Assembly: GCA_029210565.1 (NCBI GenBank) | Contig: JARGFQ010000005.1 | Span: 675-64,674 of the forward strand | Reading direction: 5' to 3' | From: Bacteroidales bacterium | Lineage (GTDB): Bacteria; Bacteroidota; Bacteroidia; Bacteroidales; VadinHA17 | DNA length: 64,000 nucleotides | Shown here: piece by piece, positions 6,580 to 40,621 of the stretch | How the letters are laid out: each line of letters begins with the position of its first letter | How positions within the stretch are numbered: position 1 is the first letter of the stretch | Notes under the pieces: model-generated | The model's database searches: none | The model's input: the letters and a program-made list of their open reading frames with translations, nothing else | Told to the model about the DNA's origin: nothing | Program-made: the position numbers and the translations under genes

Positions 6580-9111
6580 ATGAAAAAATGGATCCTTTAT
6601 AGTATTACTGTACTCTTATCTTTCAATCTGTCAGGGCAGGACTGTACCATAATTTCAAAGGCGAACAATATTACACCTGACAAATTATGTTCGCCGGTCA
6701 CTGCCACGTGGACTGTCAGCTATACGGGCGTCAACGCTGCCGGTACACCGGTGAGCATAAGGTTTGACTGGGACAACGGTACAGTTGAGACTGTTAATGC
6801 AGTGCGGACCGGGCCCGGGGTCTTCGAGGCCACGGCCATTGTAACCTATACATCTGCCGGCAGTCTTTGCAACTATCATCCGCAGGCCACCCTGATGGTT
6901 AACGGTGTTCTCTGCACCTCATCCTCGCAGGAACAGATAGTGACCGTCTGGGATGACGACGATCACAACGGAGGGCACATGCACATCAGCCCGACGGTTT
7001 ATCCTATCTGTTTCGGCAACAGTGCCAACGTGCGGTTTCAGGACCTGACGCAGTTCAACTGTGTCCCGCCGCAGGAGAGGGACAATCCGAATGTCAGCAC
7101 GAGGTGGATACAATGGATCTACGGTACCAACACCACCATGACGGGGGCACCCATAACCGTTGATGGCAGAACACGTACCTTCCCCTTTATCGATGATGTC
7201 ATCACCCTCACCGGTCCTGTAACCGGCTCCGGCGTTTGGTCCGACGTCATCTTCGTAGCCGATGACAAGCTGATAGGGCAGTATTTTGAGGTTACGCTGA
7301 GAAACTGGAACTACTGCAACCCGTATGATGACCCGAATATTCCCGGCGGCCCCCGCGACCACGTAAACGGGGACCATCCGCCGGTGGAGACCACTGCCAT
7401 CATCCTCATTGTTCCCTATCCTGAAGCAACAATCACTCCTGTGGACCCCATGTGTGCCAATGAACCACCTGTTACCCTTTCTGCACATGATCCGGGCGGC
7501 ACCTGGTCAGGCGCCGGTGTAACAGGAAACATCTTTGATCCGTCAATAGCCGGTCCGGGAAACCACACAATCAGGTATGATGTCACCAATGGCGACGGCT
7601 GCAGTGACAGGGATGAGACTGTCATCACGGTGCATCCGGTGCCTGATGCCACAATACTTACCGAGGGTATAGTCTGTTCAACCGATCCCCCGATTACTCT
7701 GACGGCCCGCGATCCGGGCGGCGTATGGTCGGGAACGGGCGTGGCCACAGGCGTTTTCTATCCTGCAGTGGCCAACACAGGCAACCATGTCATCTCCTAT
7801 TCCATCACCGACGCCAACGGATGCACCGACTATGATGATGCAATATTAACGGTGGCCACTCCTGATGCAACCATAACGCCTGTAGACACACTCTGCGAGG
7901 ACAGTCCGCCCGTCACTCTTATGGCCCATGACATGGGCGGCATATGGTCGGGCCCCGGGGTTGTCGGTAACCAGTTTTTCCCTGCCATGGCAGGTGTCGG
8001 AGACCATCTCATCAGGTACAATATCGTGAACACCGATTGCCGTGATGAGGACAGCACTGTCATCGCCGTCATGCCTCTGCCGACAATAATCATTGAGGAT
8101 CCCGGACCTGTCTATATCAACGGTTCGCCGGTGACGATGACGGCCTATCCCACAGGGGGTAGCTGGTCAGGCACCGCAATGTCAGGAAATGTTTTTGACC
8201 CCGCTTCAGCGGGGCTGGGGACACACACCCTTACCTATTCAATGCCGCCTCACAGCTGGGGCTGCGCGGTTTCTGAGACGATAACTATCACAGTGGTCAT
8301 GCCGCCCCTGCCTGAGGCGAAGTTTGAGGGTGAGGCTGCAGGCTGCGCTCCGCTGACGGTACATTTCAAGAACAAGAGCACACACGGGGAGAGCTATACG
8401 TGGGATTTTGGCGACAAACAGTATTCTGACGAGGAGCATCCGGTGCATACCTATTATGTTCCAGGAAGCTATATAGTGAAGCTGACGGTCGCCAATATGG
8501 CAGGACAGTCTGTACGTAACGGCACGGTGACTGTCTTCCGGAACCCGTCGGCTATCTTTGATGCCTATCCGACCAACGTGGTGAACAATGAACAGATAGT
8601 GATATTTTACAGCTATTCGCACTTCGCCGATGCATGGCTTTGGGACTTCGGTGACGGACAGACATCAACGGAAGAGAATCCGTACCATCAATATGAAGAA
8701 CCGGGTACATATAAAGTCTCACTAAATGTGACCACAAGTGATGGCTGCGTCGATTCTGCCGTGATGGAGACTCCGGTGGTGGTTGAATGGAAGGAGGGGG
8801 AGATTACCTTCCCCAATGTCTTCAAATGGAATGAGTCCGGCCCCACGGGAGGTCAGTGGGATGAGGGAGTATACCCCGGTATGGACAATGTCTTCAGGCC
8901 TTTCTTTGAGAATGTCATCGAATATCGTCTCCAGATCTTCAACAGGTGGGGGGCGCTGATCTATGAGAGTCACGACCTGGCGAAAGGATGGGATGGTTAT
9001 TTCGGCGACGGCAACCTGGCGCCCCAGGGGGTATATGTCTGGAAGGTTACCGGCAGGTTTGCCGACGGCGGATACTTTGACGAGGTGGGAGACGTGACGT
9101 TTTTACATTAG
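6580..9111 (+). CDS. T9SS type-B cargo: large surface protein with 4 Ig-like repeats, 2 PKD domains and a gliding-motility-type C-terminal domain
   Basis: It has a signal peptide, four units of about 72 aa, and two PKD units with WDFGD[GK] motifs. The C-terminus FPNVFKWNESG...FRPFFENVIEYRLQIFNRWGALIYES...GWDGYF...GVYVWKV is typical of the type-B sorting domain. Confidence 0.85.
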   Translation: MKKWILYSITVLLSFNLSGQDCTIISKANNITPDKLCSPVTATWTVSYTGVNAAGTPVSIRFDWDNGTVETVNAVRTGPGVFEATAIVTYTSAGSLCNYHPQATLMVNGVLCTSSSQEQIVTVWDDDDHNGGHMHISPTVYPICFGNSANVRFQDLTQFNCVPPQERDNPNVSTRWIQWIYGTNTTMTGAPITVDGRTRTFPFIDDVITLTGPVTGSGVWSDVIFVADDKLIGQYFEVTLRNWNYCNPYDDPNIPGGPRDHVNGDHPPVETTAIILIVPYPEATITPVDPMCANEPPVTLSAHDPGGTWSGAGVTGNIFDPSIAGPGNHTIRYDVTNGDGCSDRDETVITVHPVPDATILTEGIVCSTDPPITLTARDPGGVWSGTGVATGVFYPAVANTGNHVISYSITDANGCTDYDDAILTVATPDATITPVDTLCEDSPPVTLMAHDMGGIWSGPGVVGNQFFPAMAGVGDHLIRYNIVNTDCRDEDSTVIAVMPLPTIIIEDPGPVYINGSPVTMTAYPTGGSWSGTAMSGNVFDPASAGLGTHTLTYSMPPHSWGCAVSETITITVVMPPLPEAKFEGEAAGCAPLTVHFKNKSTHGESYTWDFGDKQYSDEEHPVHTYYVPGSYIVKLTVANMAGQSVRNGTVTVFRNPSAIFDAYPTNVVNNEQIVIFYSYSHFADAWLWDFGDGQTSTEENPYHQYEEPGTYKVSLNVTTSDGCVDSAVMETPVVVEWKEGEITFPNVFKWNESGPTGGQWDEGVYPGMDNVFRPFFENVIEYRLQIFNRWGALIYESHDLAKGWDGYFGDGNLAPQGVYVWKVTGRFADGGYFDEVGDVTFLH
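7423..8310 (+). repeat. Four tandem ~72-aa Ig-like coding repeats
   Basis: The units are ATITPVDPMCANEPPVTLSAHDPGGTWSGAGVTGNIFDP...NGDGCSDRDETVITVHPVP, DATILTEGIVCSTDPPITLTARDPGGVWSG..., DATITPVDTLCEDSPPVTLMAHDMGGIWSG... and a fourth, more divergent unit. Confidence 0.8.
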
Positions 9112-12060
9112 TCACCCGTCATATCCGGGTTTCATGACCACCCCGAGTTTCTTACGGCCGTCAATCATCACCGTCAGCGGTTCCGGGAACCTCACATGCC
9201 GCAGAAGGTCGTCCTCATACAGAGTCTCTGCCGTTTTCAGGAACTCATAATCGACATGCCCGTCGCCAAGGAACGGGTTAACCGTGAAATAGCCAACACG
9301 GAAGGCTGTCAGGTTCTGGAAGAAATGTGTCCCCTGGCTGGGATCTATGCGGTAGTCTTCCAGTCCGGATTCAACAATGATCCTTGCCGCGGATATCTGC
9401 TGCCATTTTATCGGTATCCCCCGCCACTCGTCGCTCGAACCCCACCGTCCCGGTCCGATGAGGATATAATTCTTCTCCTCCTCCAGGAATTTTGCATTGA
9501 TATCATTCAGCCTGGCCGCGATCTCGGGGTTCTTCGAAGCCTCGAAGTTCTCGTTCCTCACGTAGACAACATCGCAGATGTCGCTTACCGTGCCGTTACC
9601 AAGCGCAAGTGCTGATGCGACGACCGTTCTGTCCTGGGGGATCTCCTCCAACCTGAATTTGATGGTCTCGTAGTTCTCGACTATAGGCCTGATCTGGAGC
9701 AGGTTGAACGCTACCGGTTTTTTTCTTTCGGGATCTATGTTGGCAGCAAACTCAATCTCAACGGGGTTGTTCAGCTGTTGCTGTCCGGTCTCAAGGACCT
9801 TGCGCAGTATCTCTGACAGAGGAAAGAGGTCATATTTCAGAATGTTGGCGAAGGTGATGACCTTTTTGCCTCCTTCCACCGGCTCGTCACGCAGCATATC
9901 ATCCTGGTAGTCATAGGTTGAGGCTACAAACCTCAGGGTGCCGTCATTTTCGGCATCGCTGACCTTCAGCCGCAGCAGGTTTACCGAGTCATCGGTACTG
10001 GGGACAAAGCTTGCCGGGTTGAGGTCGAGGGCATAGAATTCCTGCTGTGTTTCACGCAAGGCCATCGTGGTGTCTGACAGCTGGATAATCTTTCCCGGGT
10101 ATTTTGGCGAAAATCTGAGTGCGATACCCCCGTCAACGATATATTTCCCCAGGCCGAAGGCAAGACTGACGAATCCGTCTTCCGGCTTCTCAGGCTCAAC
10201 GGGGTAAAAGTTAATAGAGCGTGCGACCCCGGAGATTGTCGGATAGAAGCGGTTCCCATATTGCTGTCCGCACACCTCCTGAAGGACGATACCCATCTTC
10301 TCCTCCTCGATCTGGTTGGCGGTGGCCTTCATGTAATCGCGGCTGCCCCTGAAGAAGACAGAGGCGTAGACGCTCTTGATGCCGGTGCTCAACAGGTCGA
10401 GCATGACCACATCATTGTCGGCCTTGGGGATCATGTATGTCGAGTATACGCCGGCAAAAGGCTGGAAATGTGAGTCTTCCAGCAGGCTTGACGACCTTAT
10501 CGCCACCGGCCCGCTTATTATTGAGATAAAGACAAGCAGGTCCTTGTGTATTCTCATCGGCAGCCTCGCCTTGATGAAGGCGTCGAGGATCTCACTGTCG
10601 CTGCTCCCTGACAGTCCGATCTCCAGCAGTGAGTTGTCAGCGATGAACTCATCGAACACGTCAGTGCTGAGCACCACGGTACGTGGGATGGAGATGACGG
10701 TATCCTCAAAATTTTCAAAGCTGCCGTTCTGCTTCACAAGATAATCGAGGAATGCCAGTCCTCGGGCCTTGCCTCCCATGGATCCCTCACCGATCCTGGT
10801 AAAGGTAAGGTACTCATCAAAATGTTCCCGGTAGAAATCGGCGATCACGCCGTGACCCTTGCTGAGGCGGAAGTTGGCAATGGTATCGAAGATGAAGCGG
10901 CGAGCCTGGTCAAGGCTTGTAAAGTCGTCGAGGCTGATCTCCTTCAGGAACTCCGCCAGCGAAAATAGTGCCCTGGCGGTGAGCCATTTTGAGAGATGGT
11001 TGCGCGACAGGTGGTAGCGAAACGACTCATCGGGTATCTCAAACAGCTTGCGCTGGAAGTTCTGAAGGTCGGAGATCCTGGCTATCTCTGCACCTGTTTC
11101 AGGATCTGTAAAGATGAAATCGCCAAAGGAAAAATGTATTTTGAGGAGAGCCTCCAGATCCGCCGGCAGGGTGGGGGAGTTATGGTTCAGGAATGTTTTT
11201 CCGTATTCAACTGCAACCTTTTCGTTTTCAGGGCTGGACGAATGTATAATAATAGGAATGTTGGTATCATAATCCTTTATCTGCCTGAAGAAGTCGAGCA
11301 GGGTGCCGCTCTTCCTGTTCTCGTTGCGGTATAGCTCTGCATCACTGATGACGCCCAGGAGCTCTGTTTTGTGTTTTTCGAAGAGTTCACGGGCCTGGTC
11401 GTAGCCGGTGGCAAGCAGGATCTTGGGCCTGCCGCGCATCTGCATCATCTTCTGGTGCTCGTTGAGGCCCTCGCTCATATACCGGCGCGACTGTTCCAGT
11501 ATTATGCCGTAGAGATAGCGCAGATAGACGGTAGCCATACGTATGGAGCTTTCGACGAGCAGTACCGACTGGATACCCTCATGACGGGCATCTTCATCGA
11601 CATTCAGCTTGTCTTCTATCAGGCTGATGATGGGAAGCAGGATATTGGTGCTTCCCAGCCAGTTAAAGACATAGTCGATACACTTCAGCTCTTCGCTGTC
11701 AAGCCTGATGGCTATCTCCCTGGAGACGGGAGCCAGGATGACAATAGGCTTGTCAGGATATTGGGATTTGATCTTCAGAGACAGATCGAACGGATCCATA
11801 TCGCTGATGCTCAGCATATTTATGATCAGATCGATCTGTCTTGTGGCCAGTGCCTCCAGTGCCTCTTCAGCTGATTTCACATGCACGAACCGGGGAGGAT
11901 ATCGAAGATTGAATGAGACGTAATCATTGAAAACCTTCTCATCAATCTTCCCGTCCTCCTCCATAATGAAGGCGTCGTACCTGCTGCAGATCAGGAGAAC
12001 ATACTGAACTCTCTTCTGCATGAGGAGTTCAAAGGAGGTGTCTCTGAAGATCTTTTTCAC
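9112..12060 (-). CDS. Receiver-like x2 + PEP/pyruvate-binding (PPDK_N-type ATP-grasp) protein with an uncharacterised GPGRWG C-terminal domain (short paralogue)
   Basis: The GTG start lies 3 nt after the gdhA stop. Receiver-like block: VLLVESS...GVISDAEL. ATP-grasp motifs: GGKARGLAFL, VAIRSSSLLEDSHFQPFAGVYSTY, EEEKMGIVLQEVCG, VEIEFA, LLQIRPI. C-terminal motifs are GPGRWGSSDEWRGIPIKW and SQGTHFFQN. It is paralogous along its length to residues ~600-1558 of the ORF at 13564..18240. Confidence 0.8.
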   Translation of the reverse strand: MKKIFRDTSFELLMQKRVQYVLLICSRYDAFIMEEDGKIDEKVFNDYVSFNLRYPPRFVHVKSAEEALEALATRQIDLIINMLSISDMDPFDLSLKIKSQYPDKPIVILAPVSREIAIRLDSEELKCIDYVFNWLGSTNILLPIISLIEDKLNVDEDARHEGIQSVLLVESSIRMATVYLRYLYGIILEQSRRYMSEGLNEHQKMMQMRGRPKILLATGYDQARELFEKHKTELLGVISDAELYRNENRKSGTLLDFFRQIKDYDTNIPIIIHSSSPENEKVAVEYGKTFLNHNSPTLPADLEALLKIHFSFGDFIFTDPETGAEIARISDLQNFQRKLFEIPDESFRYHLSRNHLSKWLTARALFSLAEFLKEISLDDFTSLDQARRFIFDTIANFRLSKGHGVIADFYREHFDEYLTFTRIGEGSMGGKARGLAFLDYLVKQNGSFENFEDTVISIPRTVVLSTDVFDEFIADNSLLEIGLSGSSDSEILDAFIKARLPMRIHKDLLVFISIISGPVAIRSSSLLEDSHFQPFAGVYSTYMIPKADNDVVMLDLLSTGIKSVYASVFFRGSRDYMKATANQIEEEKMGIVLQEVCGQQYGNRFYPTISGVARSINFYPVEPEKPEDGFVSLAFGLGKYIVDGGIALRFSPKYPGKIIQLSDTTMALRETQQEFYALDLNPASFVPSTDDSVNLLRLKVSDAENDGTLRFVASTYDYQDDMLRDEPVEGGKKVITFANILKYDLFPLSEILRKVLETGQQQLNNPVEIEFAANIDPERKKPVAFNLLQIRPIVENYETIKFRLEEIPQDRTVVASALALGNGTVSDICDVVYVRNENFEASKNPEIAARLNDINAKFLEEEKNYILIGPGRWGSSDEWRGIPIKWQQISAARIIVESGLEDYRIDPSQGTHFFQNLTAFRVGYFTVNPFLGDGHVDYEFLKTAETLYEDDLLRHVRFPEPLTVMIDGRKKLGVVMKPGYDG

Positions 12061-12063
12061 GGT

Positions 12064-13407
12064 CTACACCACTCCCTGGGCCAGCATGGCCTCGGCAACT
12101 TTTACAAATCCGCCTATATTGGCTCCGTCGACGTAGTTGATAAATCCGTCTTTCTGTGTTCCATACTTGACGCAGGTAGCGTGTATGTCTTTCATTATGC
12201 GGTGCAGGCGTGTGTCAACCTCCTCACGTGACCATGAGAGGCGCATCGAGTTCTGTGTCATCTCCAGCCCTGATGTAGCCACTCCGCCGGCGTTTGCTGC
12301 CTTACCCGGGCCATAGAGGATCTTATGGTGCAGGAAGGCATTTACTGCATCCGGTGTGGATGGCATATTGGCGCCCTCGGAGACCACGAAGCATCCGTTT
12401 TTGACCAGCATCTCGGCGTCAGCGCCGCTTATCTCATTCTGGGTGGCGGCGGGCAGGGCTACCTGGCATGGTACATCCCACGGTCCGGATTTGCCGTCGA
12501 CGTATGTGCATCCGTACTTATCTGCATACTCTTTGATACGGCCTCTCTTTACGTTCTTCAGGTTCTTCACGAAGGCAAGCTTTTCATCGTTGATGCCTTC
12601 CGGGTCATAGATATAACCGTTGGAGTCGGAGAGAGTGACCACTTTGGCACCCATCTGTATGGCTTTTTCAGTGGCAAACTGAGCCACGTTGCCGGAGCCA
12701 GAGACAGCACAGACCTTACCCTTGAGCGAGTCACCCCTGGTGTTGAGCATCTCCTCGGCAAAATAGACCTGGCCATAGCCTGTTGCCTCAAGCCTTATGA
12801 GGCTGCCGCCCCAGTCGAGCCCCTTGCCGGTCAGTACGCCGGTAAATTCGTTGCGCAGTCTCTTGTACTGGCCGAAGAGGAAGCCTATCTCCCTTCCGCC
12901 TACCCCGATATCTCCTGCCGGAACGTCAGTGTCAGCGCCGATATGTCTTTGCAGTTCACTCATGAACGACTGGCAGAAGCGCATCACCTCATTGTCGCTC
13001 TTTTCCTTGGGGTCAAAGTCCGATCCTCCCTTGCCGCCGCCCATGGGCAGTGTTGTGAGGCTGTTTTTCAGCACCTGCTCGAATGCCAGGAACTTAAGGA
13101 TACCCAGGTTAACAGTCGGGTGGAAACGGAGGCCGCCTTTGTAGGGTCCGATGGCGCTGTTCATCTCGATACGGTAGCCTTTGTTTATCTGTATCTCTCC
13201 CTTGTCATCGACCCAGGGGACCCTGAAGAGAATCACCCTTTCGGGTTCGGCCATTCTTTCAAGGATCTTTGCAGACCTGTACTTGGGGTTCTCCATGATA
13301 AAAGGCATAAGAGATTCGGCAACCTCTTTGACAGCCTGATGAAATTCAACTTCGCCGGGGTTTTTGGCGATGATCTTCGCCATGAATTCTTCAACGGGGT
13401 TTGACAT
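12064..13407 (-). CDS. gdhA: NADP-specific glutamate dehydrogenase
   Basis: This is a 447-aa Glu/Leu/Phe/Val dehydrogenase with the catalytic-Lys region LPMGGGKGGSDFDPKEKSDNEV and the dinucleotide fold VSGSGNVAQ. Confidence 0.95.
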   Translation of the reverse strand: MSNPVEEFMAKIIAKNPGEVEFHQAVKEVAESLMPFIMENPKYRSAKILERMAEPERVILFRVPWVDDKGEIQINKGYRIEMNSAIGPYKGGLRFHPTVNLGILKFLAFEQVLKNSLTTLPMGGGKGGSDFDPKEKSDNEVMRFCQSFMSELQRHIGADTDVPAGDIGVGGREIGFLFGQYKRLRNEFTGVLTGKGLDWGGSLIRLEATGYGQVYFAEEMLNTRGDSLKGKVCAVSGSGNVAQFATEKAIQMGAKVVTLSDSNGYIYDPEGINDEKLAFVKNLKNVKRGRIKEYADKYGCTYVDGKSGPWDVPCQVALPAATQNEISGADAEMLVKNGCFVVSEGANMPSTPDAVNAFLHHKILYGPGKAANAGGVATSGLEMTQNSMRLSWSREEVDTRLHRIMKDIHATCVKYGTQKDGFINYVDGANIGGFVKVAEAMLAQGVV

Positions 13408-13444
13408 TGCTGTAGGGTTTTAAGAGTTAATGTTTGACATTTAA

Positions 13445-13452
13445 CAAATTTA
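13445..13452 (-). promoter_or_regulatory. Candidate Bacteroidota -7 box (TAAATTTG) for gdhA
   Basis: The plus-strand CAAATTTA is the reverse complement of TAnnTTTG and lies 38 nt upstream of the gdhA ATG. The same extended 12-mer TTAACAAATTTA recurs upstream of the M16 peptidase gene at 48085..48096. Confidence 0.4.
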
Positions 13453-13563
13453 TGTAATTAATTCTCCAAATTTTTCAGCCATGTAATAAATTATGATCTA
13501 TTTTTTTAACTTACATAACCAATTTTTCATCTGAGGGCATTGTCATAACCTTAACCGACTTTT

Positions 13564-16500
13564 ATGAAGACGGAGGATATATCGAAATTGCAGAAGGAGA
13601 TGCAGAAGCTCCTGGCGGAGAAGATCCAGAGCCAGAAGGGGTTATCGATTATCTATACCATCAATAAGGTCATCAGCAGGAAGAGCAGCATTGATAAGAC
13701 CCTCAACGAGATAGTCGGAGAGATTACCAAGGCGTGGCAGTTCTCGGAGTACTGTCATGCCCGTATCAAATATGACGGTCAGGAATACCGGCTTCCCGGG
13801 TTCAGGGAGACACGGTGGATACAGAAGCAGATCTTTGAAACATACGATAAGAAATGGGGTGCCATTGACGTCTTTTATACAAAGCAGTTTCCGAAGGCCG
13901 ATGAGGGTCCGTTTCTGCATGAAGAGAGACAGCTGCTTGAAAACATAGCAACGATAGTATCCAATTATCTTAATTCGCAGCAGGGAGCCGAACAGAAGGA
14001 TGAAGGAGACCAGGATGTCACCCTGAAGTTGGAGCGGTCAAGACGGTTGAGCGAGGAGAAGAATATCGAGGATGCTCTCTCACAGATCAGCAGGAACATG
14101 CCCAAATCATGGCAGTATCCGGAACATGCCGTGGCCCGGATCCTTTATGACGGGAAGGAATACCTGAGTTCCGACAAGGATTTTTCGGACAGCCAGCTGA
14201 GCCTGAAGGAGGAGTTCACGACCATAAACCACAAATCGGGGACAATTGAGCTTCATTACCTTAAGGGCTTCCCCGCCACCCTGGAGGAGTCATACCTCAG
14301 GTCGGAGGAGGAGTTGCTGGGCAACATGGCGAACCTTATTACCGGGTTTATAAACATCATCAAGGGTAATGAGATCAGGCAGCCTGCCGACAGGGAGGAG
14401 GAGGGCGGGGGGAAGAAGGCTGACAACAGGATCTTTGCAAGCATAAATGAGATTTCAAAGAGGCTCAGGAGCGGAACGTTCATTGAGTCCACCCTCAATG
14501 AGATACTTGAGGTCATACCCCGTGCCTTCAGGTTTCCTGATGAGATCAGATGCAGGATCATTTATGAAGACCTTGAGTTTTCATCACCTCGTCTTAGTGA
14601 GACCTCTTTTTATATCACTGCCGCTTTCAAGACCATCACCGGAAAGAGCGGTTCTGTGCAGGTTTTCTATACCGGGGAGGGGCTCCCGGATGGGGAGGAG
14701 CCTTTCCTTGAGGAGGAAAAGCAATATGTTGAGACCCTGGCACTGCTGATATCTGGTTTTATCAATCTCATCTGTGGTCTCGACTCTGTACTTGCCACCG
14801 AGGAGGGCATGAAGGAGATACTCTATGAGAAGACGGAGAGGATCAAGGAGCTGGCCTGCATTAACCAGACCACATCGATACTCCAGGCTGAGAAATCCGT
14901 TGAAAAGGCCCTGAAGCAGATCGTCTATATCCTTCCTGACGCCTGGCAGTACCCTGAGAATACCGTTGCCCGAATCAGCTTTGATAACAATGAGTACATG
15001 TCGCCCAACTTCACGGTTACCAAGTGGCGTCAGCGGCAGCCCTTCCTCACCATCGATGACAAGTTCGGAGAGGTGGAGATATACTATACAAAGGAGTTCC
15101 CGGATCTTGATGAGGGCCCTTTCATGAAGGAGGAGAGGGACCTGATAAATAATATCTCCACCCTGATATGCAATTACCTGAACAGCGTTCAGGGGGAGGT
15201 TGCCATAAAGAAATACAGGTCTGATGAGGAGCTTAAGGAGAAATACCAGGCCGCCAGGGATTATCTTCTGAACAAGAGGAAGCTGCTTCAGAACTTCCTG
15301 GAGAAGAACAACTATGACCGCGACATCTTCCACGACCTTATGAAGTTCAAGGTTAAGGAGATACTCATAATCTCAAACCTTTATGATGCCTACAGCCTCG
15401 AGCGCGAGGGCAAGTTCTCTGATTACATCCTGGGTGTCTACTATCAGCTTAACCTGACTTCAATACCCCGCATAACTGGCGTTTCATCGTTTGAGGAGGC
15501 CTTTGAGAAGCTCTATGCCAAACACTATGACCTCATAATCATCATGGTGGGAGTGGACAGGAAGACGCCTCTGGAGATTGCATCAAAGCTGAAGGCACTT
15601 TATCAGTATATACCCATATATCTTCTGCTGAACAATAATCAGTACGTCGGATATTTCCAGGAGGAACAGAAGAAGACCAGCCTTATTGACAACGTCTTTG
15701 TCTGGAACGGCGACTCGAGGATATTCTTTGCCATGGTCAAGCAGCTTGAGGATTTTGTCAACGTGGATAATGACACCAGGGTAGGTTACAGCCGCATCAT
15801 ATTACTTGTCGAAGACTCCGCCAAGTACTATTCACGCTACATACCGCTGTTATATCACTGTGTGATGGAACAGACCAGGAGAATCATTGAGGATGTCAGC
15901 CCCATGGATGAACTTTACAAGGTGCTTCGCCTGAGGGTGCGTCCGAAGATACTCATGGCCTCCAATTACGAGGAGGCGATCCAGATCTTCAACAAATACA
16001 AGGATTTCTTCCTCTGCCTCATTACAGACGTAAAGTTTGACAAGAATTCAAAGTTCGATGAGAATGCAGGATTTGAGCTGGTCAGTTATGTGAAATCGGA
16101 GATCCCCGACCTGCCCACCATCATCCAGTCATCCGACCGTAGCAATGAGAAGATGGCAAAGGATCTGAACTGCGTCTTCATTCACAAGAATTCCGATACT
16201 CTTGCCCAGGACATAAGAGCCTTCATCAGCTACAACCTGGGGTTCGGGGATTTCATATACCAGGATGAGACGGGACGTACCATAGGTACAGCCAGGAACA
16301 TGAATGAGTTTGAGGAGCAGCTGCAGTATATCCCCACGGAGACCCTTTTGTATCATGCACGCAGAAATCATTTTTCCTTATGGCTCACCGCCCGCGGGGA
16401 GATACAGCTGGCCAGGGAGATAGCCCCGAAAAAGACCAGTGATTTCAAAGATCCGGAGTCGTTACGCGACTACCTGGTAAAGATTGTCAAGCAGCTCAAG

Positions 16501-18240
16501 TACGAAAAGAACAAGGGCAAGATCGTCGAGTTCGATGAGACTTTGATACTTGAGGAGAGCAATATCATCCAGCTCTCTCCGGGTGCGTTGGGTGGCAAGG
16601 GTCGGGGACTGGCCTTTATTCATACGCTGATATACAACTTTGACATTGCCAATTATGTCCCGGGGATAAACATCAAGGCGCCGAGGACCTTTATTATCGG
16701 GACTAACGAGTTTGAGGATTTTCTCGATAACAACAAGCTGCGGAACAAGATCTATTCCGAGACCAATTACGAAACCATCAAGAAGCTGTTCGTTGAGGGC
16801 AAGCTTTCGCAGCCGCTTGTCAAGAAGTTGCAGGTCATCCTGGAGAAGATAACCAAACCTCTGGCTGTCAGGTCTTCAGGACTGTTCGAGGACTCACTGA
16901 TGCAGCCTTTTGCCGGTATCTTTGAGACCTATCTGCTGCCCAACAGCAATAACGATGTCAAAGTCAGGCTGAAGCAGCTGACTGACGCTATCAAGCTTGT
17001 CTATGCCTCCATCTATTCGGAGACGGCCAGGGGTTATATCAGCGCCATCAACTACAAGATCGAGGAGGAGAAGATGGCGGTGATAATACAGGAGGTAGTG
17101 GGAGAGCAGTATGAAAATGTCTATTATCCTCATATCAGCGGCGTGAGCCAGTCGTACAACTATTACCCTTACGGGTACATGCAGCCTGAAGACGGTTTTG
17201 CGGTCATTGCTGTTGGGCTCGGCACCTATGTGGTGGAGGGGGAGAAGGCGTTCCGGTTCTCACCGAAATACCCGAACCTGGAGAACAACACCCCCAAGGA
17301 TCAGTATCTCAATTCTCAGGTTGAATTTTTTGCCGTGGACCTCGACAAGAAGGAGTTCAACCTGCTTGAGGGCGATACAGTCGGGCTGTCGCGGCTGAGC
17401 ATTGAGGATGCCGAGCGACACGGAGCGATAAAGCACTGTGCATCGGTCTATTCAGCCGAAGCGAAGACCATCTACCCTGGCATAGACAAGGCCGGCCCGA
17501 GGGTCATCAATTTTGCCGACATTCTGAAATATGACTACATACCACTGGCTAAATCGCTGGTTGAAATCCTTGATATCGTCAAGGAGGCACTGGGTACTCC
17601 GGTGGAAATCGAGTTTGCGGTTGACCTGACAAGGGACAGTGATTACAAGGCCTCGTTCCACCTGCTTCAGATCAAGCCCATCATAGGGGCGGCGATCGAT
17701 TATGAGGTAAACATGGATGAGATAGACAGATCGCAGATCCTGCTGTATACCGAGAAGAGTATGGGCAACGGAATGATCAGCAATATCCGTGACGTGATAT
17801 ATGTTGACAAGGATACCTTTGACAAGTCGAAAACCTTGGAGATTGCCGGAGAGATAGACGCCTTCAATGCTGAAATGATCAAATCAGACAGGCAGTATAT
17901 ACTTCTCGGGCCGGGCAGATGGGGTACACGTGACAGGTGGATAGGCATTCCGGTCACGTGGCCTCAGATATGCAATGCAAAGGTGATCATTGAAACCGGT
18001 CTTGAGGACTTCCCGCTGGATGCCTCATCGGGATCACACTTCTTTCACAATGTGACCTCGATGAATGTCGGGTATTTCTCCGTTCAGCACAACCAGAAGA
18101 ACTCCGTTCTCAACTGGGAGATACTTGGCAGGCAGAAGGTGGTTAAGCAGAGGAATTATGTGAGGCACGTTCAGTTTAAAAACAGCCTTACCGTGAAGAT
18201 GGACGGCAAGAAGAGGATTTCCGTCATCACCTGGGAATGA
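13564..18240 (+). CDS. Four GAF-like sensor modules + receiver-like x2 + PEP/pyruvate-binding (ATP-grasp) protein with GPGRWG C-terminal domain (long paralogue)
   Basis: Receiver-like block: ILLVEDS...CLITDVKF. ATP-grasp motifs: GGKGRGLAFI, LAVRSSGLFEDSLMQPFAGIFETY, EEEKMAVIIQEVVG, VEIEFA, LLQIKPI. C-terminal motifs are GPGRWGTRDRWIGIPVTW and SSGSHFFHN. It is divergent from gdhA across a 156-bp spacer. Confidence 0.8.
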   Translation: MKTEDISKLQKEMQKLLAEKIQSQKGLSIIYTINKVISRKSSIDKTLNEIVGEITKAWQFSEYCHARIKYDGQEYRLPGFRETRWIQKQIFETYDKKWGAIDVFYTKQFPKADEGPFLHEERQLLENIATIVSNYLNSQQGAEQKDEGDQDVTLKLERSRRLSEEKNIEDALSQISRNMPKSWQYPEHAVARILYDGKEYLSSDKDFSDSQLSLKEEFTTINHKSGTIELHYLKGFPATLEESYLRSEEELLGNMANLITGFINIIKGNEIRQPADREEEGGGKKADNRIFASINEISKRLRSGTFIESTLNEILEVIPRAFRFPDEIRCRIIYEDLEFSSPRLSETSFYITAAFKTITGKSGSVQVFYTGEGLPDGEEPFLEEEKQYVETLALLISGFINLICGLDSVLATEEGMKEILYEKTERIKELACINQTTSILQAEKSVEKALKQIVYILPDAWQYPENTVARISFDNNEYMSPNFTVTKWRQRQPFLTIDDKFGEVEIYYTKEFPDLDEGPFMKEERDLINNISTLICNYLNSVQGEVAIKKYRSDEELKEKYQAARDYLLNKRKLLQNFLEKNNYDRDIFHDLMKFKVKEILIISNLYDAYSLEREGKFSDYILGVYYQLNLTSIPRITGVSSFEEAFEKLYAKHYDLIIIMVGVDRKTPLEIASKLKALYQYIPIYLLLNNNQYVGYFQEEQKKTSLIDNVFVWNGDSRIFFAMVKQLEDFVNVDNDTRVGYSRIILLVEDSAKYYSRYIPLLYHCVMEQTRRIIEDVSPMDELYKVLRLRVRPKILMASNYEEAIQIFNKYKDFFLCLITDVKFDKNSKFDENAGFELVSYVKSEIPDLPTIIQSSDRSNEKMAKDLNCVFIHKNSDTLAQDIRAFISYNLGFGDFIYQDETGRTIGTARNMNEFEEQLQYIPTETLLYHARRNHFSLWLTARGEIQLAREIAPKKTSDFKDPESLRDYLVKIVKQLKYEKNKGKIVEFDETLILEESNIIQLSPGALGGKGRGLAFIHTLIYNFDIANYVPGINIKAPRTFIIGTNEFEDFLDNNKLRNKIYSETNYETIKKLFVEGKLSQPLVKKLQVILEKITKPLAVRSSGLFEDSLMQPFAGIFETYLLPNSNNDVKVRLKQLTDAIKLVYASIYSETARGYISAINYKIEEEKMAVIIQEVVGEQYENVYYPHISGVSQSYNYYPYGYMQPEDGFAVIAVGLGTYVVEGEKAFRFSPKYPNLENNTPKDQYLNSQVEFFAVDLDKKEFNLLEGDTVGLSRLSIEDAERHGAIKHCASVYSAEAKTIYPGIDKAGPRVINFADILKYDYIPLAKSLVEILDIVKEALGTPVEIEFAVDLTRDSDYKASFHLLQIKPIIGAAIDYEVNMDEIDRSQILLYTEKSMGNGMISNIRDVIYVDKDTFDKSKTLEIAGEIDAFNAEMIKSDRQYILLGPGRWGTRDRWIGIPVTWPQICNAKVIIETGLEDFPLDASSGSHFFHNVTSMNVGYFSVQHNQKNSVLNWEILGRQKVVKQRNYVRHVQFKNSLTVKMDGKKRISVITWE
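13645..15190 (+). repeat. Four tandem ~110-130-aa GAF-like sensor modules (coding repeat)
   Basis: The recurrent signature is AWQFSEYCHARIKYDGQEY / SWQYPEHAVARILYDGKEY / AFRFPDEIRCRIIYEDLEF / AWQYPENTVARISFDNNEY. Modules 1, 3 and 4 each end ...DEGPF[LM].EE..L...I...I; module 2 ends with the more divergent LEESYLRSEEELLGNMANLI. Confidence 0.7.
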
Positions 18241-18352
18241 AGTGATTTGCGATTTGCGAATTCGGTTAAATCGACAATCAAAAATTCCTCACTACTACCT
18301 ATTGCCTCATTTAATAAAATCGACAATCGAAAATCTGAAATCGCAAATCACT
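18241..18352. repeat. 112-bp spacer bracketed by a perfect 15-bp inverted repeat and filled with AAATCG(A)CAA(A)TC 12-mers
   Basis: AGTGATTTGCGATTT (18241..18255) pairs with AAATCGCAAATCACT (18338..18352). AAATCGACAATC occurs at 18268..18279 and 18317..18328, with inverted copies at 18244..18255 and 18251..18262. The unit lies exactly between two convergent stop codons. Confidence 0.75.
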
Positions 18353-19472
18353 ACAGCTCCTTCTGATAGATGCGGAACTTTTTGACCACTTTGCAGCCTA
18401 TGCGCTCGTATTCGCCTCTCATCTTGGCGTTATCCTCAAGGACGAGGTGGCTGTCGAGGGTCTCCATTTTGCTGTAAATGGCATCCTGCAGGATCTTTAC
18501 ACCCATCATGACATCTATGCCTTTTCCCCTGTATTCCTTTTTCACCCCGCCGAGCATCATTATCAGCTTCCTTGACCGCTTTGATTCCCTGAGCACCCTG
18601 AATATGCCAAACGGAAGAAGTCGCCCGCGGCACGCCTTTATCCCCTTGCTCAGGTCGGGCAGGCCTATGGCAAAACCGATCAGCTGATCGTCTTTTTCAA
18701 CGACCTTGATGAATTTCGGGTCAAGGATCGGAAGATAGCGGGCGGCAAAGTCTGTCTTCTCCTTATCAGTCAGAGGCACAAAACCGTAAATCTCGGCGAA
18801 GGTCTCGTTCATCAGCTCGAGAACACGGATAATATAGGGCTTAAGTTTCTTCTTGCTCGGGAATTCGGTGATTTTGAATTCCCCTGTCCTCCTGACTCTT
18901 TCAAGTATCCTTTCATATACTTCCGGGAAGACTCTCGGGAGTTCTCCCAGGTAATTGACCAGGTCCACCTTTTTGGTGTAGCCCTCGTTCTCAATGAGGG
19001 TCACCATGTATGGTGAATTATTGGCGGATGTGATGAACTGGGGATATTCAAATCCTTCGATCTGAAATCCCTGCGGGTCCTTGTCGGAGAAACCCAGTGG
19101 CCCGACAATCCTGGTCATTCCGTTTTGGCGGATCCACCCCTCGACATGGCTTATGAGGGCATGAAACACCTCCTTGTCGTTATAGCATTCCATGAAGCAG
19201 AATCTGCCATGGTTTTCATTATTGATCTGATTGTATCTTTTATTAATCAGTCCCATGATGCGGCCAACCGGCTTGCCGTCCCTGTATGCCAGCAGCAGTA
19301 TTGCGTCAGCATAGCTGAAAGATTTGTTCTTCTTTCGGTCGAAGAGCTCCCATTCATCCATATAAATGGGCGGGAGCCATTCCGGCTCGTCTCTGTGAAC
19401 TTTTTCAGGCAGATAGATGAAGTCACGGAGCTCTTTCCGTGTAATCACCTCTTTGATTGTTATTTCACCCAT
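18351..19472 (-). CDS. GNAT-fold acyl-CoA N-acyltransferase-like protein (uncharacterised ~370-aa family)
   Basis: The C-terminal region GGVKKEYRGKGIDVMMGVKILQDA resembles GNAT motif A (R-x-x-G-x-G). The gene is third in a tight minus-strand operon. Confidence 0.55.
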   Translation of the reverse strand: MGEITIKEVITRKELRDFIYLPEKVHRDEPEWLPPIYMDEWELFDRKKNKSFSYADAILLLAYRDGKPVGRIMGLINKRYNQINNENHGRFCFMECYNDKEVFHALISHVEGWIRQNGMTRIVGPLGFSDKDPQGFQIEGFEYPQFITSANNSPYMVTLIENEGYTKKVDLVNYLGELPRVFPEVYERILERVRRTGEFKITEFPSKKKLKPYIIRVLELMNETFAEIYGFVPLTDKEKTDFAARYLPILDPKFIKVVEKDDQLIGFAIGLPDLSKGIKACRGRLLPFGIFRVLRESKRSRKLIMMLGGVKKEYRGKGIDVMMGVKILQDAIYSKMETLDSHLVLEDNAKMRGEYERIGCKVVKKFRIYQKEL

Positions 19473-19505
19473 GTCAGTCAGGTTGTAGATAAGGTTTGGA
19501 GCGGG

Positions 19506-20219
19506 TTAAAGCTCCTGCTTCTCTTTTTTGTCAATGTCATCAGCCACCCGGAGCAGTTTTCTGGTATCGATTACATTGAAAATAAAGAGGGCAACCACCA
19601 CCACCCCTGCAGAATAGAGCAGAGAGCCGGGAAGGAAGACCTCGGCCACCATAATTATACCTATGATGATCCTCACCTCTGTCGGGCCCATCAGTCCGGA
19701 GTCGATGGAGTACTTGCCGGTAATCTTATACCTGAGAAGGGAGATGATCATCTCCCATCCGTACATGACCACAAAACCGTATCCGAAAAGCTCCCAGACA
19801 CCTTCGACATAAAAAATATAACCAAATCCGATCAGAAAAATGCCTATCCAGTCAATTGTAATATCGAGTGCAAATCCGTAAAGTTTCCTTGGCTTTTTCC
19901 TGTAGTAAGCGAGCCTTCCGTCAAGTGAATCCCCAAACCAGCTGATCATAAAACCAAGTAGTCCCAGAAGAAGGAAACTCCTGCTGAAGTAAGCTGCCAG
20001 GATAAAGCTGCCTGCCACAATAATATTGCCGAAGAAGCCGATTGCAGTCAAAAGATTGGAGCTGACGAATGGAGGGATCCGCTGAACGAGCCATGAGATG
20101 GCAATCTGCTCCTGCTTCTTTAGCAGGTTGGTTCTTGCCCTGTCACTGAAGACGGATTTGATCACGCCCCCGTTTAGCAGTGATTTCAGTGATTTTTTGT
20201 TGGAGTTTTCCTCGTACAT
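19506..20219 (-). CDS. CDP-alcohol phosphatidyltransferase family membrane protein
   Basis: The ATG at 20219 is used because the longer ORF-track start would overlap the upstream gene. The motif is GDSLDGRLAYYRKKPRKLYGFALDITID (D-x2-DG-x2-A...G-x3-D-x3-D, with the canonical Arg replaced by Tyr). The protein is multi-TM. Confidence 0.8.
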   Translation of the reverse strand: MYEENSNKKSLKSLLNGGVIKSVFSDRARTNLLKKQEQIAISWLVQRIPPFVSSNLLTAIGFFGNIIVAGSFILAAYFSRSFLLLGLLGFMISWFGDSLDGRLAYYRKKPRKLYGFALDITIDWIGIFLIGFGYIFYVEGVWELFGYGFVVMYGWEMIISLLRYKITGKYSIDSGLMGPTEVRIIIGIIMVAEVFLPGSLLYSAGVVVVALFIFNVIDTRKLLRVADDIDKKEKQEL

Positions 20220-20229
20220 CACTACAGCT

Positions 20230-21093
20230 TTAGAGTGCCATAAGATTAAGCATTTTTCCCGGGATAAATGATGCCGGCATGGGCATTTCATATACCTGAT
20301 CCCGAAGAAAAGATCCAAATGACACATTATCAGCAAATTGCTGCTGCTCTTCAACCGATATCAGATTGCCTATCCCGATACGTGGCTTCCCTCCCTGTTT
20401 GTTAAAAACCTCGGAAGGGAGCCTGAGAATACGGATTCTCCAGTTTATGAGACCCAGGAAGTAGAAGAAGGCGGAGTTACCGTCGAAGAAGCGAACCGGC
20501 AGTATGGGTACTTTAACGGACCGGATCACGTGCAGTATGCTCTCCTGCCATCGCCTGTCCCTGACACGCATATCTCTCAGGCTGAAGTCGGAGACGGCAC
20601 CTGACGGGAAGAAGCCGGCGGGGTGGCCGTTACGAATGTGTTCAAGTGTCTCGCGTACTCCCCTGAGGCTGGCGGCTTTTACGCCCGTCTTTTTATTGCC
20701 GGCGGGGGTCACCGAAATGAAATTATCATTTAGAGTTTTTATGCTTGAAAGCAGCTTGTTGACCATGAACCTGTAATCGGGCCGCAGCCGCGCAAACAGG
20801 TCGATCGTCATGATCCCGTCCAGGCCTCCGTAAGGGTGATTAGAAACGGTGATGAAGGCTCCGTCAGGCAATTCCTTGAGTCTCCCGGCATTGCCTACAA
20901 CATAGCTGACACCTATGTCATCAAGAAGCCGGGAGGTAAATTCGGCACCGGTGTAGGCGCCCGAGTGATCATATACCCAATTGACCTTGTCAATCGCCAG
21001 CAGCCGAATTATAAATTCAGCGAGGCGCTGCCCCCTCTCACCCCTGAAGAGTGAAGAGAGGGTTTCGAACTCTTTTGCGTCTACTACCTTCAT
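20230..21093 (-). CDS. Lysophospholipid (PlsC/OlsA-like) acyltransferase
   Basis: The ATG at 21093 gives MKVVDAKEFETL.... The acyltransferase block is ITVSNHPYGGLDG and a later block is FFPSGAVS. The ORF-track start at 21273 is an extension through the promoter region. Confidence 0.7.
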   Translation of the reverse strand: MKVVDAKEFETLSSLFRGERGQRLAEFIIRLLAIDKVNWVYDHSGAYTGAEFTSRLLDDIGVSYVVGNAGRLKELPDGAFITVSNHPYGGLDGIMTIDLFARLRPDYRFMVNKLLSSIKTLNDNFISVTPAGNKKTGVKAASLRGVRETLEHIRNGHPAGFFPSGAVSDFSLRDMRVRDRRWQESILHVIRSVKVPILPVRFFDGNSAFFYFLGLINWRIRILRLPSEVFNKQGGKPRIGIGNLISVEEQQQFADNVSFGSFLRDQVYEMPMPASFIPGKMLNLMAL

Positions 21094-21104
21094 GGCGGAG
21101 TATA

Positions 21105-21112
21105 CAAAAATA
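21105..21112 (-). promoter_or_regulatory. Candidate -7 box (TATTTTTG) of the acyltransferase operon
   Basis: The plus-strand CAAAAATA is the reverse complement of TAnnTTTG and lies 12 nt upstream of the ATG at 21093. Confidence 0.35.
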
Positions 21113-21118
21113 GCAATT

Positions 21119-21231
21119 ATCTGAAAGCAGTGGCAGCCGGCAGTATCTGATAATACAGATCTGAAGGTATCCCGTGCCGGCAGGCATCTGACAAGGTTTG
21201 TCTGAAGATATCCTGTACAATCAGCATCTGA
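21119..21231 (+). promoter_or_regulatory. Array of five exact ATCTGA hexamers (plus one GTCTGA) in the divergent promoter region
   Basis: ATCTGA occurs at 21119, 21145, 21159, 21186 and 21226, and GTCTGA at 21200. The last two sit in a 21-bp direct repeat GCATCTGA[CT]AAG[GA]TTTGTCTG (21184..21204 and 21224..21244). Confidence 0.6.
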
Positions 21232-21358
21232 TAAGATTTGTCTGGTGGCAGCCTGCGCAATCAGCCTCTTCACAGGTTTTACTGATTCTTTACCGGCACA
21301 GGGAATACATTGGCTGGCTGCAGTCGCCGTTCTCTGGCAAAGGGTAATTTAATTAATG

Positions 21359-21366
21359 TATATTTG
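21359..21366 (+). promoter_or_regulatory. Candidate -7 box (TATATTTG) for the GH20 gene
   Basis: It matches TAnnTTTG exactly and lies 64 nt upstream of the ATG at 21430. Confidence 0.35.
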
Positions 21367-21429
21367 AATGCAGAACGCTCTGTCGGCTGGCAGCCGCTCA
21401 GGAAGAGTAACGAAACGATTTTTACTAAA

Positions 21430-36670: not shown

Positions 36671-36688
36671 GTTAATTTGCAGAGAGAG

Positions 36689-39379: not shown

Positions 39380-40621
39380 ATGAAAAAGTTATTACTGTTA
39401 ATTGTAGTTCTCATCTGCCTGGGACCGCCGGCTTTGGCCCAGGATGAAGACAAGGGGTGGGGGATAAAGGTCTCGGGATTCGTGAAGACGGATATCTTTT
39501 ATGATACCAGGCAGTCTACCGCCTCAAACGGCCTCAGGGAGGGACATTTTTACCTCTATCCCGACAATGTGCTTTATGACGAGGATATGAACGATCTCAA
39601 TGCCAACCCTTCGTTTCATATTCTGAACATACAAACCAGGGTCAGGGGTGATATCAAAGGCCCTGACGCCTTCGGTGCGAGGACATCGGGAGCCATCGAG
39701 GCCGAGTTCTTCGGAACGGGCGAGAGTGACATCAACGGCTTCAGGCTGCGGCATTCCTATGTTAAGATGGAGTGGCCCAAGGTGACACTTCTGGCCGGCC
39801 AGTACTGGCATCCCATGTTTCCGGCAGAGAATTTTCCCGGTACTGTCAGCTTTAACACAGGAGCGCCTTTCGTTCCCTTCAGTCGTAATCCGCAGGTAAG
39901 GTTTGTGTACAATCCCGGCACTTTTCTTAGCCTGACTATGGTGGCATACTCTCAGCGCGACTTCACCTCGTCGGGCCCGGACGGCAACAGCAGCAAATAT
40001 ATCAGGAACAGCGGAAGGCCCGGGATGCATCTGCAGTTCAGGCTGCCGGCCGGGGATAATCTGACAGCCTGGGGTGGGGTGGATTATAAGGTTTTGAGGC
40101 CAGAGATAAAGACTTCCGCCAATATTGAGACCGATGCCACCGTGGGAAGCCTGTCTGCCTTTGCCTCACTGAAGCTGAAGGCCGGGCCGGTGAATCTGTC
40201 AGTCATGGGAGTATACGCAGAGAACGGAAGTGATATGGTGATGATAGGAGGCTATGCAGCTACGGGTACTCCTGATCCTGTTGATCTCTCCAGGGAGTGG
40301 ACCACCCTTAATACCGCCTCCTTCTGGGCTGACATCAGTACAACTGTCAATAAGACCCACCTGGGCATCTTCTCAGGCTATTGCAAGAACCTCGGGGCGA
40401 AGGAACCGGTTGACGGAGACTTTTTCGGCAGGGGGAGTAATATAGATCATCTCTTCAGGCTCTCTCCGAGGATTATGGTTACGGAAGGCAAGCTGAGCAT
40501 TGCTGCTGAGCTTGAGAACACCCTGGCTGCTTACGGAACGACGCAGCCTGACGGCAGAGTGGCCGATACCGGCAGTGTCACCAATATGCGCCTGCTGCTC
40601 AGTTTCATCTACCGTTTTTAG
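39380..40621 (+). CDS. Outer-membrane porin-like beta-barrel
   Basis: It has a signal peptide MKKLLLLIVVLICLGPPALAQ, alternating strands, and a C-terminal ...LLLSFIYRF with terminal Phe. Confidence 0.7.
   Translation: MKKLLLLIVVLICLGPPALAQDEDKGWGIKVSGFVKTDIFYDTRQSTASNGLREGHFYLYPDNVLYDEDMNDLNANPSFHILNIQTRVRGDIKGPDAFGARTSGAIEAEFFGTGESDINGFRLRHSYVKMEWPKVTLLAGQYWHPMFPAENFPGTVSFNTGAPFVPFSRNPQVRFVYNPGTFLSLTMVAYSQRDFTSSGPDGNSSKYIRNSGRPGMHLQFRLPAGDNLTAWGGVDYKVLRPEIKTSANIETDATVGSLSAFASLKLKAGPVNLSVMGVYAENGSDMVMIGGYAATGTPDPVDLSREWTTLNTASFWADISTTVNKTHLGIFSGYCKNLGAKEPVDGDFFGRGSNIDHLFRLSPRIMVTEGKLSIAAELENTLAAYGTTQPDGRVADTGSVTNMRLLLSFIYRF

Follow-up and report, generated by a model that had tools for sequence, protein, structure and literature searches.

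The window analysed here, a stretch of 64,000 nucleotides from a Bacteroidales bacterium of the VadinHA17 group, carried a glutamate dehydrogenase (GDH) gene set between two large paralogous genes whose products joined receiver-like domains to a PPDK_N-type ATP-grasp. The gdhA gene (12064..13407, minus strand; 447 aa) encoded an NADP-type hexameric GDH and was followed on the same strand by the gene of the short paralogue (9112..12060; 982 aa, GTG start). On its other side, an AT-rich divergent spacer of 156 bp (13408..13563; 27% GC) separated gdhA from the gene of the long paralogue (13564..18240, plus strand; 1558 aa). The short protein consisted of a pseudo-receiver, a receiver, a linker, the PPDK_N ATP-grasp and a C-terminal domain, and in the long protein the same five modules were preceded by four N-terminal repeats. 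The paralogy of the two proteins was supported by an alignment of 971 residues with 36% identity and 58% positives. An earlier note, made from the DNA letters alone, had described this arrangement, and the table of open reading frames (ORFs) and the translations bore out its coordinates, the GTG start, the 3-nt gap after gdhA and the divergent spacer. Whatever else that note had observed in the locus also held, except that the proteins it called giant are better termed large.

The gdhA product was a family I hexameric GDH according to Pfam (ELFV_dehydrog_N, PF02812, 1.9e-51; ELFV_dehydrog, PF00208, 1.7e-89), and it scored 762 bits against the NCBIfam model of NADP-specific GDH (PRK09414), for which the cut-off is 536. 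Its stop codon TAG was followed by ACC and then by the GTG of the short ORF, in the same frame, and no terminator-like site was present at this junction. Since homologues conserved the residues upstream of Met14 (consensus K..F..T.F..LM), the GTG start of the short protein was favoured over the alternative ATG at Met14 (12021). The only Bacteroidetes -7-type motif of the spacer was TAAATTTG (13452..13445, minus strand), in the upstream region of gdhA. As a side observation, the TAG-ACC-GTG junction (12058..12066) was in frame throughout, and read-through of the stop codon would fuse GDH to the PPDK_N protein. The shared frame may be a one-in-three coincidence, and there were no GDH fusion proteins among the matches listed.

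The N-terminal half of the short protein was built from two receiver-like domains. The first (residues ~18-160; 11581..12009, minus strand) gave a sub-threshold Pfam Response_reg match, matches to receivers among the PDB sequences and PleD-like Foldseek matches. In the 57-sequence alignment, its phospho-acceptor position was occupied by Met82 in all 57 sequences; it was therefore a pseudo-receiver. The second receiver (residues ~163-300; 11161..11574) had its acceptor at Asp240 (codon 11341..11343), and the alignment retained E170 and S274 in every sequence, D240 in 55, K293 in 49 and D171 in 48. The corresponding pair in the long protein, a pseudo-receiver (597-741) and a canonical receiver (744-884), was encoded at 15352..16215 on the plus strand. 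There the second receiver was canonical at all five positions, namely E-D, Asp822 (codon 16027..16029), S and K, whereas the short copy of the window departed from the consensus at two of the five, with S171 and H293. A degenerate receiver followed by a second receiver was found in both proteins as the earlier note had proposed, and the motifs VLLVESS and VISDAEL (short) and ILLVEDS and LITDVKF (long) were all present. Pfam Response_reg scores remained below threshold (25.5 and 20.6 bits against 30.2), and phmmer searches of the PDB gave receiver matches with E values of 0.005-0.1.

An AlphaFold2 model of the short protein, built from the same alignment (mean predicted local distance difference test score, pLDDT, 79), contained two alpha/beta receiver-like domains, a helical region, a disordered hinge, the ATP-grasp and, as a separate unit, an alpha/beta domain at the C-terminus. 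The best Foldseek match of the whole model was the tandem receivers of PleD (E ~2e-6), and single receivers reached target-normalised TM scores of 0.6-0.77. The whole-protein search was dominated by receiver matches and was uninformative on the catalytic half. The helical linker (residues ~310-401; 10858..11133, minus strand) was followed by the disordered hinge at 402-418, and the equivalent region of the long paralogue gave a weak Pfam match to DUF5752.

The four tandem repeats of about 125 aa at the N-terminus of the long protein (residues 17-141, 151-268, 282-405 and 423-544; 13612..15195, plus strand) were 31-44% identical to the first. They shared the pattern '...ARI.YDG.EY....F.ET.....F.T...K.G.IEV.Y...FP..DEGPFL.EE..L...'. 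No Pfam family matched them at E<=10 beyond noise, and no PDB match was found. An assignment to GAF or PAS domains was unsupported, with the best GAF-containing PDB match, Nlh1 (4g3k), at E 0.65. We regarded the repeats as putative ligand-sensing modules. Most long-type orthologues elsewhere were only 1270-1300 aa long, so the number of repeats seemed to vary between lineages.

The catalytic half of both proteins began with a complete PPDK_N ATP-grasp. It was encoded at 9667..10782 (minus strand) in the short gene (residues 427-798; Pfam PF01326, E 4e-35) and at 16588..17685 (plus strand) in the long gene (residues 1009-1374; E 7.7e-41), and the matches spanned profile positions 3-314 of 328. 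The nucleotide and Mg motifs were invariant in all 57 aligned sequences: GGK431, R522-S-S, E528-D529, Q594-E595, E768/E770 and Q789. The earlier claim of a complete ATP-grasp module was confirmed, with GGKARGLAF/GGKGRGLAF, RSSSLLEDSHFQPFAG/RSSGLFEDSLMQPFAG, EEEKM..QEV, VEIEFA and LLQI[RK]PI all present in addition to the profile match.

The remaining parts of known PPDK_N enzymes were missing. NCBIfam models of PEP (phosphoenolpyruvate) synthase, PigC, RedH and RPH matched only with their N-terminal ATP-grasp part, at 20-59 bits against cut-offs of ~600-1350. In particular, PEP_synth, PRK06241 and PRK06464 gave 20-56 bits (cut-offs 598-1063), RIF_Ptrans_rph 21.9 bits (999) and PigC 47-59 bits (1300). 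Pfam found no PEP/pyruvate barrel (PF02896, PEP-utilizers_C) in either protein and no swivel-type PEP-utilizers domain (PF00391) at E<=0.1. Similarly, no substrate domain, be it the barrel or a rifampicin-binding domain, was recognisable by Pfam or by Foldseek of the C-terminal domain. Some database entries are named 'phosphoenolpyruvate synthase' or 'pyruvate, phosphate dikinase', which would make the two proteins ordinary members of these families. The domain tests refuted this idea, to which we assigned almost no probability: the 20-59 bits against cut-offs of 600-1300 came from the N-terminal ATP-grasp only, and there was neither a swivel domain nor a barrel.

Directly after the ATP-grasp, both proteins ended in a family-specific C-terminal domain, confirming that they shared a domain of about 180 aa. 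It was encoded at 9115..9660 (minus strand) in the short gene (residues 801-982), with the codon of His912 at 9325..9327, and at 17692..18237 (plus strand) in the long gene (1377-1558), where the motifs read GPGRWGT and SSGSH1492FF and the His codon lay at 18037..18039. Two motifs, G-P-G-R-W-G (870-874) and S908-x-G910-[ST]-H912-F-F (short numbering, with T in the short copy), were invariant in a set of 31 sequences whose pairwise identity did not exceed 45%. When 1.84 billion representative proteins were searched, the domain was found in 1586 representative clusters at E<=1e-3, and in every architecture checked it stood directly behind PPDK_N. Among these architectures were proteins without receivers (550-625 aa), proteins with a doubled core, and one such double core fused to a nucleotidyltransferase domain. 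As examples of the duplicated type, three proteins of 1520-1650 aa (P0249, P0264 and P0347) had two full PPDK_N and C-terminal-domain cores in tandem and no receivers, and P0347 ended in a nucleotidyltransferase (NTP_transf_2 / Polbeta) domain.

Modelled alone with AlphaFold2, the C-terminal domain reached a pLDDT of 89.8 and a predicted TM score (pTM) of 0.88. The His912 loop was its lowest-confidence part (pLDDT 68-77 against 90 and above), which fits a mobile loop in the model. Foldseek of this model against the PDB gave a best E of 0.03 with TM scores of at most 0.33 and no dikinase or Enzyme I match, a search of BFVD found no structural match (best E 0.13), and the profile of the domain had no relative among PDB sequences. 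By eye, 'YILIGPGRWG...ARIIVESG...QGTHFFQNLTAFRVGYFTV' resembled 'ILVT..T.P.W...AIVT..GGxTSHAAIVARELGIPAVV', suggesting a cryptic swivel domain, but this homology was rejected because Foldseek, the PDB profile and hhalign were all negative. The hhalign comparisons, for which a diverse profile of the 31 sequences was used, were made with PDB-verified swivel domains, first four and later six (2ols, 9dae, 8a8e, 5fbs, 1zym and 1kbl), and the probabilities were 0.3% and 0.6%. Thus, the absence of a swivel His domain, the detection of which by profile search would have spoken for ordinary PEP synthase-like enzymes, was upheld by Pfam, NCBIfam, Foldseek, the PDB-sequence profile and profile-profile comparison. 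The wider claim that the proteins lack a phosphohistidine stood only in part: no swivel was recognisable, but the invariant S-x-G-[ST]-H-F-F loop may hold a non-homologous carrier histidine. In PEP synthase and PPDK (pyruvate phosphate dikinase), the His domain directly follows the ATP-grasp, and by analogy the invariant His loop could possibly act as a phospho-carrier here.

A missing swivel domain might also be supplied in trans. Phenylphosphate synthase is a split dikinase with a PPDK_N-only subunit. The AcvAB acetovanillone kinase is another example, and the acv system is the subject of bioRxiv 10.1101/2022.04.28.489975. The two proteins would then be nucleotide-binding subunits whose swivel-His partner is encoded elsewhere, and our view of this genome comprised 64 kb only. 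However, the motif G[GA]x[TS][SC]H[AGS][AS] was absent from all frames of the window and of 80 related loci, which excluded a neighbouring trans-acting swivel subunit. Moreover, the proteins have a conserved C-terminal domain of their own where unsplit dikinases have the His domain. A split dikinase was therefore very improbable in our judgement.

The presence of an invariant His and a conserved acceptor Asp in one polypeptide raised the idea of a self-contained phosphorelay, in which phosphate would pass from the ATP-grasp to His912 and on to the receiver Asp of the same protein, the ATP-grasp/His pair replacing a histidine kinase. In agreement with this, no cognate histidine kinase gene was conserved in the neighbourhoods of the surveyed loci. 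On the other hand, the receiver-less core proteins of 550-625 aa retained both the G-P-G-R-W-G and the His-loop motifs, the latter equally well conserved, so that the His is likely to serve the chemistry of the core rather than an internal His-to-Asp relay. Such a relay would also leave the protein without an output domain, and the receiver of the short copy was partly degenerate. Thus, we considered this scheme improbable, with only a slim chance of being correct.

The family was large. Of the 8,000 candidates scored for the short type, more than 7,655 matched at E<=1e-5; the long type had 428 matches. The species-representative genomes that carried it included those of Bacteroides, Phocaeicola, Parabacteroides, Prevotella, Alloprevotella, Muribaculaceae, Rikenellaceae, Paludibacter, Lentimicrobiaceae, Lutibacter and Polaribacter, and metagenome-assembled genomes labelled Chlorobiota also contained it. 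One Phocaeicola allele of the PPDK_N gene was present in 1446 blocks of the contig index. The names given in databases were generic: 'PEP/pyruvate-binding domain-containing protein', 'phosphoenolpyruvate synthase', 'pyruvate, phosphate dikinase' and 'CheY-like chemotaxis protein'. A literature search by database name, domain names and GDH context found no relevant paper on the family. Therefore, 'undescribed', the word used in the earlier note, was appropriate for the function but not for the sequences, which are abundant under these generic names. We also tried a reading as anti-phage defence proteins, and neither large protein matched a PADLOC defence model at E<=0.01.

The evidence for a connection with GDH came from gene neighbourhoods. 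We surveyed 80 species-level loci with flanks of up to 10 kb by tblastn with the GDH of the window. A gdh gene was found within 10 kb of the PPDK_N gene or genes in 29 of the 80 loci, and within 600 bp in 21 of them; three more abutted the N-terminal extension of a long paralogue. Assuming one to three gdh genes per genome of ~3,500 genes, we estimated that fewer than one of the 80 loci would show this by chance. When the flanking ORFs were clustered all against all, GDH was by far the commonest neighbour family.

Three GDH subfamilies took part in the linkage. The PRK09414 type is that of the window's gdhA, and it also lay upstream in Lutibacter and in Polaribacter. In most Bacteroidales, genes of the PRK14030 type either followed downstream in the same direction or were divergent, and in Phocaeicola and Parabacteroides the PRK14031 type lay at a distance of 3-5 kb. 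The layouts were gdh(-)/long(+) short(+) gdh(+), gdh(+) short(+) gdh(+), gdh(-)/short(+), short(+) gdh(+), and the window's own short(-) gdhA(-)/long(+), and the gdh-linked layouts, at least four in number, spanned Bacteroidales and Flavobacteriales. The exact layout of the window recurred in a 77% relative (L085), and a 57% relative (L086) had short(+) gdh(+). The widespread Phocaeicola allele was gdh-linked as well. In four Phocaeicola loci (L081-L084, about 8430..21700), the PPDK_N gene stood between two gdh genes, with the PRK14030 type divergent and the PRK14031 type at a distance of ~4.5 kb. In these loci the second gdh was adjoined by a malic enzyme-PTA fusion gene (maeB-like), giving a small carbon/nitrogen-node cluster.

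The linkage that the earlier note had seen in a single genome was thus conserved beyond it. It was strong, it arose repeatedly, and it was hard to explain by inherited synteny, given three GDH subfamilies, at least four layouts, both strands and two orders. The same observations, together with the rank of gdh as the most frequent neighbour, spoke against the view that the adjacency is functionally meaningless and that the proteins are regulators with an ATP-grasp output in some unrelated process, brought next to gdh by synteny or co-regulation only. This view could draw on the 51 of 80 loci that had no gdh within 10 kb, some of them on short contigs, and on several Bacteroides species that had a hybrid two-component system as the neighbour instead. 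Taken together, we judged it rather improbable, although less so than the phosphorelay.

Another recurrent neighbour was a pair of korA/korB genes for a 2-oxoacid:ferredoxin oxidoreductase (POR / POR_N / TPP_enzyme_C), found in about 14 loci immediately upstream and in the same orientation. They preceded the long and short pair in L013-L022, L034 and L060 (for example, L019:3389-6260), and before them lay a glutamate-racemase-like gene and two ompH genes. The products of these neighbours, GDH and KorAB, have 2-oxoglutarate in common, which would fit regulated metabolic enzymes rather than protein modifiers. Their ATP-grasp core would add phosphate to, or ligate, a small molecule drawn from the pool of 2-oxoglutarate and glutamate, much as pyruvate is converted to PEP, rifampicin is phosphorylated or PigC acts; the gdh and korAB linkage would then reflect a shared pathway. 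To our knowledge, all characterised PPDK_N enzymes (PEP synthase, PPDK, RPH, PigC and GWD) act on small molecules or glucans. Moreover, the best partial NCBIfam matches were to PEP synthase, PigC and RedH, and receiver-less core proteins exist as stand-alone enzymes. A metabolic role of this kind was nonetheless unlikely: there was no recognisable substrate-binding domain, such as a barrel or a rifampicin-binding domain, two receivers and four sensor-like repeats are more typical of regulators than of pathway enzymes, and no further pathway genes were conserved near the surveyed loci.

The reading that we preferred, tentatively and at somewhat less than even odds, was that the two proteins are signal-gated, dikinase-like ATP-dependent enzymes acting on GDH or on the 2-oxoglutarate/glutamate node. 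Gene linkage suggests the target, and the motifs suggest the ATP-dependent chemistry. The earlier note had suggested a signal-controlled ATP-dependent modifier at this node; the architecture and the gene linkage behind that suggestion were supported, and modification of GDH is a proposal. We regard the proteins as good candidates, as yet unproven, for an undescribed GDH regulator. The paralogues would be cytoplasmic signal-transduction enzymes, with the PPDK_N ATP-grasp and the C-terminal domain with its invariant His loop as the output. In the putative first step, an unlinked histidine kinase would phosphorylate the second receiver at Asp240 (short) or Asp822 (long), and in the long paralogue a signal may also come as ligand binding to the four N-terminal repeats. 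The receiver pair would then, by analogy with PleD, shift the oligomeric state and free the catalytic half across the hinge at 402-418. In the third step, the ATP-grasp, whose motifs are complete, would bind ATP and move its phosphate, most likely to His912 as the first acceptor. Finally, as the gene linkage suggests, the phosphoryl group may be passed on to GDH or a partner at the node, switching its activity. The 3-nt gap could allow the enzyme and its modifier to be made together, and the divergent long paralogue might provide a second, ligand-sensing input.

Several points weigh against this proposal. In addition to the 51 loci without a nearby gdh, the korAB linkage may reflect shared ancestry and synteny within one clade. 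With S171 and H293, the receiver of the short copy may not be phosphorylated. Since there was no detectable relationship with swivel domains, the phospho-His step would be an analogy of position and motif only. No protein-substrate-binding feature was identified in the paralogues. Furthermore, in the Phocaeicola/Bacteroides-type loci, the genes directly downstream of the PRK14031-type gdhA encoded a PCMD lipoprotein and an outer-membrane beta-barrel protein rather than a PPDK_N protein; the Phocaeicola PPDK_N gene lay beyond two further genes of its own direction, next to the other gdh.

The last point is relevant to the older literature. In Bacteroides, Phocaeicola, Prevotella and related bacteria, the dominant groups of gut and rumen communities, ammonia is assimilated mainly by GDH. 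Earlier studies, among them those of Yamamoto in 1987 and Abrahams in 2001, reportedly found that GDH activity is controlled after translation and requires trans-acting genes, and we know of no mechanism for such control. The title of a 1996 paper by Baggio & Morrison (cited in PMC4539542) ties Bacteroides GDH activity to trans-acting genes. Since PCMD and outer-membrane protein genes follow the PRK14031-type gdhA, something else may be the trans-acting factor of that work. It may or may not be a member of the present family; the link is unverified and serves as a lead only. In its most far-reaching form, our proposal would describe a new class of protein-modifying enzyme, in which a receiver- and ligand-gated PPDK-type ATP-grasp with a non-swivel His loop domain phosphorylates GDH, or modifies it in another ATP-dependent way, and so turns ammonia assimilation in Bacteroidota on and off. 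It would then be the factor that is missing from the accounts of Bacteroides GDH, whose reversible inactivation and dependence on a 'trans-acting gene' have been reported. This extended version was speculative and on the whole unlikely to hold in full.

If the proposal is true, the family would provide the first demonstrated example of a PPDK_N-type ATP-grasp that functions in the absence of a swivel phosphohistidine domain, and also the first of a response regulator whose output is a PPDK_N ATP-grasp. An abundant family of gut Bacteroidota that so far has only generic annotation would give a concrete handle on GDH regulation.

Other genes of the window were noted in passing. The ORF at 6580..9111 (plus strand) encoded a protein with PKD repeats and a type IX secretion sorting domain of the CHU_C type. 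It formed a tight convergent junction with the short ORF, stopping a single base short of the latter's 3' end (9111 and 9112), and this neighbour was also kept in the 77% relative L085. Farther away, a 953-aa sensor protein (40618..43479, minus strand) combined Cache, PAS and CBS domains with the putative nucleotidyltransferase domains DUF294 / DUF294_C, near a sodium:solute symporter gene (36677..38368). Two genes for class III adenylate/guanylate cyclases (51280..52674 and 55957..57987, both plus strand), one of them fused to an HD domain, enclosed a gene for a PorZ-like type IX secretion protein (52811..55108).

Among known systems, Enzyme I-Ntr (PtsP) of the nitrogen PTS is comparable in function only: it, too, is a phosphotransfer enzyme from the PEP-utilising superfamily that is under the control of an N-terminal sensor. 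Work by Lee et al. in 2013 reportedly ties it to the glutamine/2-oxoglutarate balance. However, its donor is PEP, it has a TIM barrel as well as a true swivel His, and its target is NPr, whereas the donor here would presumably be ATP via the ATP-grasp. Its sensor is a GAF domain, and the N-terminal repeats of the long paralogue gave no GAF match. Dedicated post-translational control of dehydrogenases at branch points of the tricarboxylic acid cycle and nitrogen metabolism, with the regulator encoded near its targets, is known from AceK (the isocitrate dehydrogenase kinase/phosphatase) and from GarA/OdhI, which regulate GDH and 2-oxoglutarate dehydrogenase. Their folds and chemistry are unrelated to those of the present proteins, for which GDH is a putative target. 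The phenylphosphate synthase beta subunit and AcvAB resemble the family in having a PPDK_N polypeptide without a swivel domain, but their His-domain subunit is encoded next door, and no such gene or motif was found near this family.

The closest likeness in the catalytic half was to PEP synthase, PPDK, rifampicin phosphotransferase and PigC, with which the two proteins share a complete PPDK_N domain bearing the GGK, RSS..ED, QE, ExE and Q motifs. In PEP synthase and PPDK, the ATP-grasp is immediately succeeded by another domain, and so it is here, with an invariant His after small residues and Ser/Thr. In contrast to this dikinase superfamily, there was no PF00391 swivel and no barrel, and two receivers, with four additional repeats in the long form, stood at the N-terminus. 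In the regulatory half, the proteins were similar to PleD-type regulators of the REC-REC-output design, where one competent and one degenerate receiver are followed by an enzymatic output. Compared to PleD, the order of the receivers is reversed, with the degenerate one first, and the output is an ATP-grasp rather than GGDEF. What sets the family apart is its architecture: proteins of the response-regulator type that have, as their output, a PPDK_N ATP-grasp lacking a swivel and joined to a novel C-terminal domain.

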